From Spirochaetia bacterium (lineage in GTDB: Bacteria; Spirochaetota; Spirochaetia; SP-2023): DNA of 64,000 nucleotides. The stretch lies in assembly GCA_965263295.1 (NCBI GenBank), contig OZ253665.1, positions 1,536,001 to 1,600,000 on the forward strand. Direction: 5' to 3'. The position numbers and the translations under genes are program-made. Position 1 is the stretch's first letter. Every line of letters starts with the position of its first letter. This document shows, piece after piece, positions 19,485 to 24,975 of the stretch. The notes under the pieces were generated by a model, which did not search any database, had not been told where the DNA came from, and worked only from the letters and a program-made list of their open reading frames with translations.

Positions 19485-21554
19485 ATGCAAAGTATTGGCA
19501 AGAAATATCGGACCCGCAGAGACAACGTCATTGATATTTTTGAGCATTACAAAGACAAAAGAGGCGATCTTAATGATGGCGTCGATATCGAATATCTGGA
19601 CCGTAGGATTGACTCCCTCAAAAAAAATAAATTCATGCTGGCGGTGGCCGGGGAAGTAAAAGCGGGCAAGTCGACATTCATCAACGCGCTTCTGGGCGCG
19701 GAAATCCTGCCGGTCGATGTCCTGCAGGCATCCAGTACCATCGTGGAAGTCTGCAAAGCCCCCGCGCCGTTTTTGCGCGTCAAATATTTGGACGGAACGG
19801 AAGAAAATTTTCCCCAGCAATCCCCCCCCCCCACACACACAAGCGACACGCGCGAAGCCATTGAGAAGAAAATTAAACAACGGCTGCGCCAGATATGCGC
19901 AATCCGTGAAGAATATCGTCAGATATCGACGACACAGATAGACGACGACATCATTAACAATGCTCTTCCTGCACAAGTCGATGACGCCTACGTAAATAAA
20001 TTACAAGGAGCTTCCAACGAGAAGCTTGCAGGCAAGCATGGCCTGATTAAAAAATATATTGAGCAGAGGGGCAGGAAGGTTCCAGTTGAGATTGAATTGG
20101 GCTATCCCCTGGAATGGAACTTTGACGAGCTGCGCCTCGTCGATAGCCCCGGAGTCAATGCGACTGGCGGGGTGCAGGATCGCACATACCAATTCATTGC
20201 CCAGGCCGATGCCATCCTGTTTGTGCACCCAATCAAACCCGTTGAATCTGAGTCTTTCAGAAAATTCGTCGATAATGTTATCCCTAATCGCAGCCAAGGG
20301 ATGCTGTTTCTGGTCCTGACCCACGCGGGGCCCCCCAATACTGACGATGAAGTCGAGAAGCTCTGCGCCGAGGCCAAACGACTATACGGGGATAAAATAT
20401 CCGAAGATCGCATTCTGGCTGTCGACAGTCTGCTCGGACTGATCTACAAAGACCTCGCTCGTGGTGTTCCGCTTGAAGAGATCGAAAAATGTCAAAAGAA
20501 AGAGGACGCAATCTCCATACACCAAAATCGAGCTACAAAAAAGGGTAAGAAATTGATTGATGTCGTGCGCGAAAGTTCTGGGTTTGTGGAGCTCTCTGCT
20601 GCCATTGATGAATTTTCCATGCGGGCTCCGCTAGAGAATCTGCGCGAGATTGTGGAAAAGATCAAGGCGGGGTATGAGGCGCAGGAAAACAGGTACGACG
20701 AAGATCGCAAGATGCTGGAAGATAAGCGCAAAGACCCCCAGGAGTTTGCAGTAAATATAGACCACATCACCAACGATCTTGATCAATTAAAACTATTTTT
20801 CAATGAAACTGGGGACGCATTAAAAAAGGAATGGACGGGCACCCAGGCCCCATGGAAGGACCCCGTCGAAGAACTTGAAACAAAGTATCAGCAACTCATA
20901 CGTGAAAGTCAGGGAATTGACAGCCTCAGGAAAAACTTTTTCGATGCCTCCAATTCTACGAAGGATATACAGAAGGAATATTCGCAGAAATTGAGCGCGA
21001 GGATTACAGAAGCACTTGAGGAGCAGGGCCGGGCATTCAAAGCAAAATATCAGATATCCATTCCCCAGGTTGACCTGGACGCCTTGGAGAAACACGCAAA
21101 GGAGGCGGCCTGGAGCGAGGAAGCTGTTTATGAAACCCATGAGGTAGACCGCAAGTGGGATTTTGGGGATTGGGTTTCCCTGGGATTGGCACGCTGGTTC
21201 CGAGATAACAAAGAAGAGGTAACAGTCCAGACAGGCACCAAAGAGGTGTTTGATGAAGACAAATTTCTTGAGGGCTTTAAAACAAAATGCGAGTCCAAAT
21301 TTTGTGATATCATCGTCCCAGCTCTCAAAGCCGGATTCCCTAAATACTTGGAAGAATGTTTAAATTCTTTTAAAGACGAAATGGATTCGCTCATCAATGC
21401 CCGGCAGAAGGATCTTGAGGAAGTAAAGCACAAGCAACAATCCAATCAGGAGATCATTGCGGAAATTGAGGATTTGGGCAAAAAAAAAGCGAGCATTCAG
21501 TCGGAAAAGTTGCGCTGCATCGAATTGCTGGAGGACCTGGAGAAGCTGATATGA
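19485..21554 (+). CDS. Bacterial dynamin-like GTPase
   Basis: G1 GEVKAGKST, G2 T (ASST), G3 DSPG, G4-like LTHAG, long helical trunk, Trp-rich amphipathic WDFGDWVSLGLARWF. Confidence 0.88.
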   Translation: MQSIGKKYRTRRDNVIDIFEHYKDKRGDLNDGVDIEYLDRRIDSLKKNKFMLAVAGEVKAGKSTFINALLGAEILPVDVLQASSTIVEVCKAPAPFLRVKYLDGTEENFPQQSPPPTHTSDTREAIEKKIKQRLRQICAIREEYRQISTTQIDDDIINNALPAQVDDAYVNKLQGASNEKLAGKHGLIKKYIEQRGRKVPVEIELGYPLEWNFDELRLVDSPGVNATGGVQDRTYQFIAQADAILFVHPIKPVESESFRKFVDNVIPNRSQGMLFLVLTHAGPPNTDDEVEKLCAEAKRLYGDKISEDRILAVDSLLGLIYKDLARGVPLEEIEKCQKKEDAISIHQNRATKKGKKLIDVVRESSGFVELSAAIDEFSMRAPLENLREIVEKIKAGYEAQENRYDEDRKMLEDKRKDPQEFAVNIDHITNDLDQLKLFFNETGDALKKEWTGTQAPWKDPVEELETKYQQLIRESQGIDSLRKNFFDASNSTKDIQKEYSQKLSARITEALEEQGRAFKAKYQISIPQVDLDALEKHAKEAAWSEEAVYETHEVDRKWDFGDWVSLGLARWFRDNKEEVTVQTGTKEVFDEDKFLEGFKTKCESKFCDIIVPALKAGFPKYLEECLNSFKDEMDSLINARQKDLEEVKHKQQSNQEIIAEIEDLGKKKASIQSEKLRCIELLEDLEKLI
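19822..19832 (+). repeat. C11 homopolymer followed by (AC)4 within the dynamin ORF
   Basis: t-ccccccccccc-acacacac, encoding SPPPTHT. Confidence 0.9.
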
Positions 21555-22216
21555 TTGCCGAAAAGATCAAACAAGATATCGACAATGAGTTCGCGCAGCT
21601 CAATGAAGCGCTGCGCCAGACTCACTTAAAAGACGATTTTGACCCGTCTAAGCTCAAGGCCGATTTACGGGAGCACGTCCCCAAACAGATCAAATATAAG
21701 TCGGGCATGCTTCTGGATACACTGCTGAACTATCTCATGGCCGACGCCCAGAAGAGGATTAAGAGTGCCGATCTGCGGCTGCAAAATGCATTTTTCGACG
21801 CCGACTTCCGCAAGCGTGTCCGTGAATGGTTGGAGCGCCAGGAAAATGATCTCGCGTGGAAGCCGGATTCGGTGCCCTACGGATTTGATCCCCGTATAAA
21901 AGATGGGATGATTGCCGCGGGCATCACCTTTGTCGCCGGCACGGGCATTACCCTGACGCTTGTTCCGAGTGTTGTCGGAGCCATTGTCGCCGGCATCGTC
22001 ACCATTTTGCTTTCCGCCTTGGCCTTCAAGAGGTTCCATGACAGAGCCGCGCCGAAAGCCCGCGAGCTTGTAGTGGCAGATATTGACAAATACCTTGAGG
22101 CGACGCGCGAACAGGTCACTGAATGGCTGGGGAAAGTTGGCGCGGCCTTTGAAGATGATTTCCAAGCTTTCTGCAAGAACAATGGCTTTGCATTGGCGGG
22201 AAGGCCAAATGAATGA
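21551..22216 (+). CDS. Helical protein with a transmembrane hairpin; probable dynamin partner
   Basis: ATGA overlap with the dynamin stop; hydrophobic GMIAAGITFVAGTGITLTLVPSVVGAIVAGIVTILLSALAF. Confidence 0.8.
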   Translation: MIAEKIKQDIDNEFAQLNEALRQTHLKDDFDPSKLKADLREHVPKQIKYKSGMLLDTLLNYLMADAQKRIKSADLRLQNAFFDADFRKRVREWLERQENDLAWKPDSVPYGFDPRIKDGMIAAGITFVAGTGITLTLVPSVVGAIVAGIVTILLSALAFKRFHDRAAPKARELVVADIDKYLEATREQVTEWLGKVGAAFEDDFQAFCKNNGFALAGRPNE

Positions 22217-22359
22217 GGTCGCCCGCGTCAAAACGCCAAGTGAGCGCCAGTCTCTCGTCGACGATGCTTCTCAAAAGCTTTTGCCCTGGTGGTCTGCCGA
22301 CGACACGGATAGACGATGACATCATTAATTATGGTCTTCCCACACAAGGCGATGAAGCC
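22209..22359 (+). pseudogene. Truncated gene start (MNEVARVK...) joined to a diverged dynamin-gene fragment
   Basis: ATG 22209 overlaps the upstream stop and has a GGAAGG SD, but stops at 22319; 22298-22359 matches 19927-19988 at 53/62 nt. Confidence 0.65.
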
Positions 22360-22428
22360 AGACCGGCAGGTCATGCTCGCTTGAATGCGCATTGATCTTT
22401 CCCTTGCTCCTGACAAAGAAGATTTGCC

Positions 22429-23876: not shown

Positions 23877-23912
23877 GGGCCTGGACCCAATTCTAAAAAA
23901 TGGAGGTGATAC

Positions 23913-24581
23913 ATGCTTGAAAAACTTAGTGCGAGTGCATCCAGGGAAGTGGCTCGCATAGGCGAAGCTTTCAAAGAGACAGCTATTGAGAGAACTAAGG
24001 AGCTGCCGCAATTTAGCATGGAGACTATCGAGAATAGTTCTTTGGAGAGTTTGAGGGCACAAAATGAATCTCGTCTTGCAGAGACGGCGCTCAAAGAGCA
24101 AACTGAGACAGAGAGAGACGCAGGCACTGAGACCAAGGGGCTGACAGAAGAAGAAAAACAACAAATCAAGGATGAAACTGGTTGGTCTGATGAAGTCATT
24201 GATGCAATTCGCTCAACGGAGGAATGTGATGTTTATAAGAATGCCGGGCTCCGGGAAAATGAGATAAATGGCAGGGAATGTCTAGTTAGAAGTGATATTG
24301 ATTGGGATCGGCAAGACGATATGGGACGTACCAATAGAGAGAGGGCTGAGGCGGGTCTTTCTCCAATCAATAAAGATGGAGACACCATTGAATTACACCA
24401 TATTGGGCAGAAGAGCGATGCTTCTCTCGCCGAATTAACTCCGGATGAACACAGAAGTAAAGAAAATTATTCGGTATTGCACGACACAAAAAAAGATTCT
24501 GAAATAGATCGAGATGTATTCAGCGGTGAACGAAGCGATCATTGGAAGGCAAGGGCAAACGTGGGAGGACAAAATGCATGA
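23913..24581 (+). CDS. LHH-family (HNH/EndoVII) nuclease toxin with acidic N-terminal leader
   Basis: TNRERAEAGLSP..KDGD.IELHHIGQ....LAELT..EHR...LHD...SEIDR..F..ER..HWK.R; GGAGGT SD. Confidence 0.9.
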   Translation: MLEKLSASASREVARIGEAFKETAIERTKELPQFSMETIENSSLESLRAQNESRLAETALKEQTETERDAGTETKGLTEEEKQQIKDETGWSDEVIDAIRSTEECDVYKNAGLRENEINGRECLVRSDIDWDRQDDMGRTNRERAEAGLSPINKDGDTIELHHIGQKSDASLAELTPDEHRSKENYSVLHDTKKDSEIDRDVFSGERSDHWKARANVGGQNA

Positions 24582-24975
24582 TAGCATTATTGAGGCAATT
24601 GAAAAGCGATTTAAATTGTACAAGACAAAGGGTGCATCTGACGAGCTTATCGCAGAGGCAGAGAGGCAGCTGGGCTTAAACTTTGCTGATGATTATAAAG
24701 AATACCTATCTCATTTTGGGGCAATATCATTTGGCTCCACGGAACTGACAGGATTGAATATTGGCAGTTATGCAAATGTCGTCAGTGTCACACTAAAAGA
24801 AATTCAAAGAAATAACTCATTCCCCAAAGGATCTATTGTCTTGGAGAATACAGGCATGGAAGGCTTCTTGGTATTGCAGAAAGAAGATGGAGAAGTGTAT
24901 GGATGGCTAGACGGGAAAAAAAAGGATACATTCCCGAATTTACAGGCATTTTTGAGTAGCAAGATTAGCAATTAG
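24574..24975 (+). CDS. SMI1/KNR4 (SUKH) immunity protein
   Basis: GAS.E.I.EAE.QLGL.F..DYKEYL..FG; GGAGG SD; overlaps the toxin stop. Confidence 0.9.
   Translation: MHDSIIEAIEKRFKLYKTKGASDELIAEAERQLGLNFADDYKEYLSHFGAISFGSTELTGLNIGSYANVVSVTLKEIQRNNSFPKGSIVLENTGMEGFLVLQKEDGEVYGWLDGKKKDTFPNLQAFLSSKISN

Follow-up and report, generated by a model that had tools for sequence, protein, structure and literature searches.

Several described systems resemble parts of the operon analysed here, which occupies positions 19485 to 24975 of a 64,000-nucleotide stretch of a Spirochaetia bacterium genome (contig OZ253665.1; the whole stretch is called the window) and encodes a dynamin-like GTPase, a membrane protein, the remains of an ATPase, a nuclease toxin and an immunity protein. 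The polymorphic toxins of the Tox-LHH/WHH families and their Imm-SUKH partners (Zhang et al. 2011, 2012; PMC3113570, PMC3482391) belong to the same families and, in the accessible text, have the same layout of constant N-terminus, swapped tip and adjacent immunity gene. The export routes given there for LHH toxins (PMC3482391) are the type II, V, VI and VII secretion systems (T2SS, T5SS, T6SS and T7SS) and PVC, and the word 'dynamin' does not occur in that text as far as it is accessible. An 'EccE3-HerA' ATPase with a small helical partner was noted in Type III-A CoCoNuT restriction super-operons (Bell et al. 2024; PMC11090510), in an article whose accessible main text contains neither 'dynamin' nor a toxin-immunity pair. 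In addition, the available part of 10.1101/2022.05.11.491447 describes a two-dynamin operon that protects against jumbo phages.

Compared with these systems, the constant part of the operon fits none of the catalogued routes tested (type IV, type VII and Leo). Its intact homologues share with EccE3-HerA an EccE3/VirB4-like N-terminal domain, a variable beta-strand insertion and a VirB4-like motor (the window keeps a 3' remnant), a likeness drawn from the published description and not from sequence; in contrast to the Type III-A CoCoNuT extension with its small helical partner, the toxin-linked loci have dynamin, nuclease and immunity genes. Unlike the described polymorphic toxins, those found here are about 170-390 amino acids (aa) long and match no WXG, LXG, RHS or PAAR domain, nor did we see the arrays of orphan cassettes that are common, though not obligatory, in such systems. 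Type VII secretion, with the FtsK-HerA pump EssC/YueA and its WXG/LXG toxins, offers a parallel in the FtsK/HerA-superfamily pump, the small nuclease toxins with helical leaders and the SUKH/YezG immunity proteins, but the ATPase has one motor domain where EssC/EccC has a tandem, carries a VirB4-type N-terminal domain, is accompanied by a dynamin and also occurs in two-membrane bacteria; no WXG100 genes were found, nor any WXG/LXG Pfam match among the toxins scanned. The ATPase has the fold of type IV secretion, with an N-terminal domain like that of VirB4/TrwK. However, TrwK/VirB4 systems need VirB3/6/8/9/10-type parts, and judging from open reading frame (ORF) content and annotations the conserved core contains no such channel genes, the partner being its sole membrane gene. 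LeoABC/Eleos, which we take to be the two-dynamin operon active against jumbo phages, likewise has dynamin-like GTPases in islands, and the LeoA, LeoB and LeoBC models give weak matches here; these are partial and not a full-length two-gene match (best E 1.6e-9 over 39 residues of a window protein), and an ATPase, a nuclease and an immunity gene are all lacking there. The Sir2-HerA and DUF4297-HerA defence pairs share the motor fold, but their HerA proteins are about 570-690 aa long and no immunity gene accompanies them.

No description of the dynamin-ATPase-toxin architecture was found in the literature as far as it was accessible, although supplementary tables (PMC3482391, PMC11090510) or subscription journals could list such loci; a look-up of terms in the available text of PMC7159879, PMC8195603, PMC4158269, PMC11381338 and 10.64898/2026.10.19.760177 gave nothing on it. 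A preliminary description of the locus, made without database searches, knew of no characterised system with this architecture, and we too found no library model or paper that names the whole. The ATPase belongs to a noted but uncharacterised family, and a toxin system built on that family was not found in the printed sources accessible to us. The operon is a real, widespread and apparently unnamed system that has a reasonable chance of representing a new class of secretion, while polymorphic toxin-immunity itself is of a known kind.

Recurrence of the operon across genomes

A locus search seeded with the window dynamin as a single protein gave nothing, and the same query had no match in 40 relatives. 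Seeding with a dynamin alignment succeeded and gave 157 loci, comprising 26 close and 131 remote ones (103 of the latter at least 8 kb long). Of the 18 close loci whose sequence extends 3.5 kb or more from the start of the dynamin gene, 17 hold the ATPase, as against 1 of the 131 remote dynamin-like loci; the exception, L005 (loci are denoted by L and a number), holds only the dynamin and the membrane protein. Seeding with an intact ATPase in four random phylum samples, 1600 non-centre genomes in all, gave 23 matches, of which 10 have a nuclease and a partner gene downstream, 1 is broken, 10 belong to a toxin-less sister type and 2 are other. Beyond the window, 31 loci on chromosomes and plasmids combine the ATPase with a nuclease and its partner gene, and their named phyla number at least five (Pseudomonadota, Bacteroidota, Latescibacterota, Bacillota and Spirochaetota). 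The conserved order is dynamin, membrane protein, ATPase of about 1,050 aa, small nuclease and immunity gene. One to three dynamin genes lie upstream in 29 of the 31 loci (27 recognised by search, Pfam or annotation and 2 by N-termini nearly identical to a scanned one), and the membrane partner is kept at the same position in the close loci. A recurring order, an intact ATPase elsewhere and swapped toxin/immunity pairs across taxa had been named beforehand as the support to look for, and all were found.

The co-occurrence counts largely refute the view that these genes came together by chance, as a dynamin pair, the remnant of an ATPase and a toxin-immunity cassette that gathered in a variable region. 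The window copy is indeed broken and includes an unrelated acetyltransferase gene, L005 has only its two genes, and the ATPase also occurs without a toxin (10 of the 23 sampled matches, with 2 other). Set against the counts of 17/18 and 1/131, the translational coupling of the genes and an order kept over five phyla, a chance assembly is highly improbable.

The operon was also found on plasmids of E. coli, Lactococcus cremoris, Treponema saccharophilum, Bacillus and Exiguobacterium; among 43 plasmid records, 6 of the 10 looked at were of the toxin-less type. The T. saccharophilum plasmid locus (L167) recurs as the same locus in a genome of the class of the window's host (L182), on which basis the host was taken to be a spirochaete. 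The plasmid copies, the patchy spread (ATPase in 23 of the 1600 sampled genomes, dynamin in none of the 40 relatives with the query used), the matches of the motor to DNA translocases (DndH-C, VirB4, HerA and a CedD model) and the mention of conjugation as one guess in the accessible text of PMC11090510 would suit a selfish island, whose VirB4-like ATPase and dynamin move its DNA between cells and whose nuclease-immunity pair is an addiction module. Against this, no relaxase, integrase or terminal repeats form part of the conserved core, a leader conserved on an addiction toxin would serve no purpose, and the query used confirmed none of 38 pattern matches in viral contigs; we consider a selfish island improbable. 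Phage records gave two unannotated partial matches. Many homologues, not counted here, are on contigs whose length, about 7-8 kb, equals that of the operon, which would suit a unit that assembles whole and varies between strains.

In a quick ATPase tree the toxin-linked proteins form two supported clades and the toxin-less ones a third; the branches among the outlying L169, L188, L203, L163 and L202 are long. The tree does not include the window remnant or the truncated L178 and L191, and L182 and L167 are one locus. One ATPase of a toxin-linked clade (L200:383-9457) has a GAP1-N2/GAP1-M gene on one side and a DO-GTPase2 gene on the other, and is not accompanied by a nuclease-immunity pair. 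Distant ATPase relatives on actinobacterial and archaeal plasmids and elsewhere (L161, L162, L169, L188 and L203) are heuristically without the Ser/Thr-rich insertion described below, and in L161 and L162 the relative precedes long low-complexity proteins.

Leaders, nuclease tips and immunity genes

The window toxin is composed of a conserved acidic leader (residues ~1-55) and an LHH tip of the HNH/EndoVII fold, with the signature N, LHH, E, H, H, W given in the accessible text of PMC3482391. Tips were assigned in 32 toxins, by Pfam where scanned and by blastp or motif for the remainder: LHH in 10, WHH in 9, REase-like in 5, Endonuclea_NS_2 (EndoNS2) and 'HHMP' in 3 each, and HNH and PoNe-like in 1 each. 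The downstream gene switches with the tip, being SUKH beside LHH/WHH, YezG-like beside EndoNS2, PoNi beside the PoNe-like tip and DUF7832-like beside REase-like tips; the REase-like and 'HHMP' tips are without a Pfam name, as are the partner genes of two tip types. The nameless tips, one PD-(D/E)xK-like by eye (L003:9731-10614 and L184:4659-5467) and the other 'HHMP' (L093, L183 and L186), each go with a conserved partner gene of their own, and these two families are candidate new nuclease-immunity pairs. A further HExxH-containing domain, recognised by eye and without a Pfam match, is encoded by a separate gene before the toxin in L010:6636-7697 and is fused to the toxin N-terminus in L097:11877-13055; it is possibly a processing peptidase or a second effector.

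The swapping of tips is best seen in four species of one genus, which all have the operon at one site, behind a V-type ATPase K gene. Their operon ATPases are 71-91% identical and their tips are LHH, REase-like, EndoNS2 and EndoNS2; the tip differs even between species whose ATPases are 87-91% identical. Between L184 and L185 the leader is common and the sequences then diverge. Exchange also crosses the ATPase clades: an REase-like tip (62% identical) and its immunity gene (37%) are present in both, and the first 55-94 residues of the window toxin are 44-57% identical to toxins that end in an REase-like tip, while its own tip is common to toxins of the other clade. A leader profile searched over 1.84 billion representatives had 25 matches, 4 of which are long repetitive proteins; the 21 of single-protein size comprise 10 LHH/WHH/HNH toxins, 6 with an REase-like tip or its start, 3 others and 2 tipless fragments. 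A region search with the leader alone found only 5 matches among 10 candidates. The first 60 residues carry a net charge of 0 or less in all 32 toxins and show no strong early hydrophobic stretch, so that, by this heuristic of charge and hydropathy, there is no Sec signal.

As read from these sequences, the constant leader, the swapped tip and the matching downstream immunity gene form the pattern of polymorphic toxins. The preliminary description had taken the immunity gene to imply a target in another cell; an immunity gene alone does not imply an outside target.

The ATPase, the dynamin and a possible export machine

The fold of the ATPase was predicted for the L003 protein (model from 126 sequences; predicted local distance difference test, pLDDT, 83.5) and comprises an N-terminal alpha/beta domain, a single motor domain with intact Walker motifs and a helical C-terminal domain. 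The motor matches DndH-C (Z 31.9), VirB4 (31.5) and HerA (27.3). Searches with the whole model were filled by the motor domain, and the N-terminal domain was therefore modelled separately; this model matches TrwK/VirB4 (Z 15.7, root-mean-square deviation 3.8, 252 aligned), followed by an EccE3-containing ESX-3 chain (Z 8.2), and the first ten Foldseek ranks are all R388 VirB4 entries. Of the 'HerA-like ATPase' proposed earlier, the damaged translocase-type motor stands, but on these models the protein is better named VirB4-like, with a special insertion and of the kind noted as 'EccE3-HerA'.

The insertion (residues 220-294 of L003) sits between two helices. Over the 126 sequences it is 44% Ser/Thr/Gly, compared with 18% elsewhere, shows a two-residue Ser/Thr periodicity and has stepwise lengths peaking at 72, 80, 88 and 100. 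Its tip is hydrophobic or a glycine zipper in 23 of 31 toxin-linked ATPases and in none of 10 toxin-less sisters, a count made among related sequences and within heuristic limits. A complex of the leader and the ATPase was modelled for the L003 homologue, with the ATPase in two pieces without the insertion. It scored 0.58 against 0.00 for the best of three controls, with contacts agreeing by at least 65% between runs and a partner pLDDT of at least 58; the mark used is reached by 116 of 157 solved pairs and 2 of 215 mismatched ones, although at 0.60 or less by only 18 solved pairs and both mismatches. The model lends weak support to binding of the leader by the ATPase.

The sister branch (L165, L166, L179, L180, L189-L192, L195-L197 and L201; one tree clade, with L191 outside the tree) has an all-polar insertion. 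Its ATPase gene is followed by one for a helical protein of about 190-260 aa, often with a Gly/Ser-rich hydrophobic N-terminus, and there is no immunity gene; neighbours include Hsp70-like, FGE-sulfatase, WD40 or dynamin genes, and L166 adjoins a DUF2357 gene. This branch is probably the 'EccE3-HerA plus small helical protein' described in the accessible part of PMC11090510, here mostly outside CoCoNuT loci.

The dynamin is a member of the bacterial dynamin-like proteins, as judged by its Dynamin_N match, its G motifs and a long helical region after the GTPase domain, and its family profile matches the Nostoc bacterial dynamin-like protein (BDLP) 2j68 (E 1e-18). Its G1 (GEVKAGKS) and G3 (DSPG) motifs are kept in 51 and 48 of 51 aligned homologues, respectively, and an atypical G4 (LTHAG) is common to the family. 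Among 8000 candidates, 474 homologues have E of 0.001 or less, the best being about 50% identical. By hydropathy it has no hydrophobic paddle. In the membrane partner hydrophobic 19-residue segments start at residues 119-145, and this central stretch is probably a helical hairpin. Its nearest clusters in the Atlas searches were all without a name, and PADLOC gave a weak LeoB match (E 0.0023). That it is a split-off piece of the dynamin was rejected, as the two profiles do not match (hhalign probability 0.3%) and, where the partner is missing (two loci), the dynamins show no internal hydrophobic stretch.

Our analyses lead us to favour, with modest confidence, the reading that the intact operon encodes a polymorphic-toxin system that brings along a compact, self-contained machine for export or trafficking. 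A hexamer of the ATPase would assemble at the membrane and recognise the toxin leader as an export signal; the toxin would then be threaded out through a conduit that the six insertions build together, in the form of a long beta-barrel with its hydrophobic tips sunk into a membrane. At the export site the dynamin and the membrane partner would bend, tether or fuse membranes, and the target would be a neighbouring cell that does not have the cognate immunity protein. An analogy for such a conduit is provided by the Ser/Thr-rich stems of beta-pore-forming translocases. A bolder and more tentative version, to which we give somewhat less than even credence, is a new, minimal class of protein delivery in one- and two-membrane bacteria, with a single VirB4-like ATPase as both pump and needle (the needle being a long barrel of six Ser/Thr-rich hairpins whose tips insert into a membrane), the dynamin bringing membranes or fusing them, leader-tagged nucleases entering neighbours and the sister branch moving a membrane-active helical cargo.

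Several observations weigh against export. Outer-membrane, VirB6/8/10-type and WXG100 components are all missing from the conserved core and the layout is identical in one- and two-membrane bacteria, which leaves the route across the envelope unexplained. The insertion barrel is proposed from a sequence pattern in a region with pLDDT below 50 in both models, and 8 of the 31 toxin-linked insertions have no hydrophobic tip. The leader is clade-specific, in that its profile misses the second clade. L160 and L186 carry an upstream protein of 610-660 aa without a Dynamin_N match, and the membrane-partner gene is missing in L009 and L194. No orphan tip-immunity cassettes were seen by eye in the part of the ORF listings covered, at loci with downstream sequence, each of which shows a single immunity gene. 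Intracellular defence complexes, too, bind a nuclease to a HerA-type motor, and the WYL regulators at 9 of the 31 loci, together with restriction or Fic genes next to several of them, are signs of defence islands.

These neighbours recall an intracellular anti-phage (abortive-infection) system, in which phage entry or damage to the membrane would be sensed by the dynamin and a membrane-anchored ATPase. The ATPase would then free the nuclease of its immunity protein or feed it DNA, the infected cell would die, and phage inhibitors would drive the swapping of tips. The WYL genes lie upstream at 8 loci and downstream at 1; L007 sits between the mod and res genes of a type III system with GmrSD next to it, Mrr genes lie beside L011 and L194, and HsdR_N beside L006. 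The lack of envelope-spanning parts in the conserved core would also suit defence, as would the anti-phage activity of the two-dynamin operon (available part of 10.1101/2022.05.11.491447), the first notice of this kind of ATPase in CoCoNuT restriction super-operons (accessible text of PMC11090510) and the member in the GAP1/DO-GTPase locus L200. Conversely, the PADLOC matches (LeoA/LeoBC, mad8 and HerA models) are partial and none extends across whole proteins, those to NCBIfam are likewise partial, and the VirB4-type N-terminal domain belongs to a secretion ATPase, not to defence HerA proteins. The SUKH, PoNi and YezG-like partners belong to immunity families of secreted toxins, which for PoNi and YezG we assume from Pfam names and general knowledge. 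In addition, no WYL gene is seen at 22 of the 31 loci, although several contigs break off a short distance upstream. Defence inside the cell is the main rival explanation, if a rather unlikely one, and it can merge with export in a damage-induced weapon that kills neighbours or infected siblings.

The window copy and the significance of the system

The ORFs of the window are listed in Table 1, with families called by profile matches. All are co-oriented, with overlaps at 21551-21554, 22209-22216 and 24574-24581, as the preliminary description had stated, and Shine-Dalgarno-like sequences are clear upstream of the dynamin, toxin and immunity genes. Its identification of the dynamin, the LHH toxin and the SUKH immunity protein was borne out; for the last, SUKH_5, SUKH_6 and SMI1_KNR4 each exceed the Pfam cut-off. 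Its mention of a dynamin pair does not agree with the window, which has one dynamin. Promoter and terminator scans were at chance level (11 vs 7.1 and 10 vs 6.8, respectively).

Table 1. Features of the operon in the window
Feature	Position	Strand	Remarks
Dynamin-like GTPase	19485..21554	+	689 aa, frame intact; Pfam Dynamin_N E 5.6e-20
Membrane partner	21551..22216	+	221 aa; central hydrophobic stretch; family without a name
ATPase 5' stub	22209..22319	+	36 codons; by blastp/tblastx against intact L003, L004, L088 and L082
Dynamin-like 62-nt stretch	22298..22359	+	85% identical to 19927-19988 (dynamin gene)
Vat/CatB-family hexapeptide acetyltransferase	22429..23088	+	219 aa; NF000311 E 1e-77, 260 bits
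ATPase 3' remnant, VirB4-like	23085..23876	+	last 263 aa; 57% identity to L003
Polymorphic toxin, LHH nuclease	23913..24581	+	222 aa; Pfam LHH E 9.4e-23
SUKH (SMI1/KNR4) immunity protein	24574..24975	+	133 aa; SUKH_5 E 5.3e-20

The damage to the ATPase had been suspected earlier, when the Vat-like gene and the 62-nt dynamin copy were missed. Similarity to intact homologues stops near 22311 and restarts at 23082 (about residue 779 of a 1050-aa homologue), so that the remnant corresponds to residues ~779-1042 and is without the N-terminal domain, the insertion and both Walker motifs. About 770 bp, holding the dynamin-like stretch and the acetyltransferase gene, replace about 2.2 kb, or some 70% of the ATPase. 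The acetyltransferase gene has a third-position G + C content (GC3) of 0.71, and its best plasmid matches are 51-57%; it is absent from the intact operons compared and thus lies outside the conserved system. Its score is below the NF000311 cut-off of 300 bits for Vat, and the product appears Vat/CatB-like, with resistance a candidate function only. The 62-nt stretch suggests incoming DNA from a second, related operon copy; no second copy of the ATPase, dynamin or leader was found in the 2.4-Mb, 92.6% complete genome.

An assembly artefact was rejected, because contigs from three runs of one study span both edges of the lesion (X1 and X2 from one sample, possibly the source, X3 from another with a diverged strain); a run from another study extends over the 5' part alone, at a depth of about 2. 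The X3 strain differs at 54 letters over 19000-20444 (region compared, 19000-20754), with small deletions that sum to whole codons, and has the same lesion plus a further 7-nt loss in the stub; its dynamin frame seems to be kept while the stub decays. As the lesion is real, the window copy is probably dead as a machine and a relic, useful mainly as a pointer. It has lost its motor to an illegitimate replacement, and no more of the machine is kept than the dynamin, the membrane protein and the toxin with its immunity gene.

The operon is flanked by fliS on one side and a Ham1/rdgB gene on the other, as described before. Its insertion between the two is unsupported: in each of three genomes of the same genus the DNA that comes after fliS is different, and over ~11 kb it includes neither the operon nor rdgB. 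No empty site was found in these congeners, where fliS has other neighbours. Beyond rdgB, 1 kb past the operon, lie tRNA-Ser and tRNA-Arg genes (25999-26185), which no repeat ties to it.

Intact copies on a plasmid of the dairy bacterium Lactococcus cremoris (pB26B, L164) and in other cultured non-pathogens such as Halopseudomonas xiamenensis (L004) make either reading, export or defence, directly testable. If export is true, the known interbacterial weapons would gain a secretion route of only three constant genes, a first concrete cargo would be assigned to an ATPase family about whose role there had been guesses, and bacterial dynamins would be connected with toxin delivery, as has until now been no more than suggested. 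If the operon serves defence instead, it would be the first system in which polymorphic-toxin tips and their immunity proteins are assembled around a VirB4-like motor.

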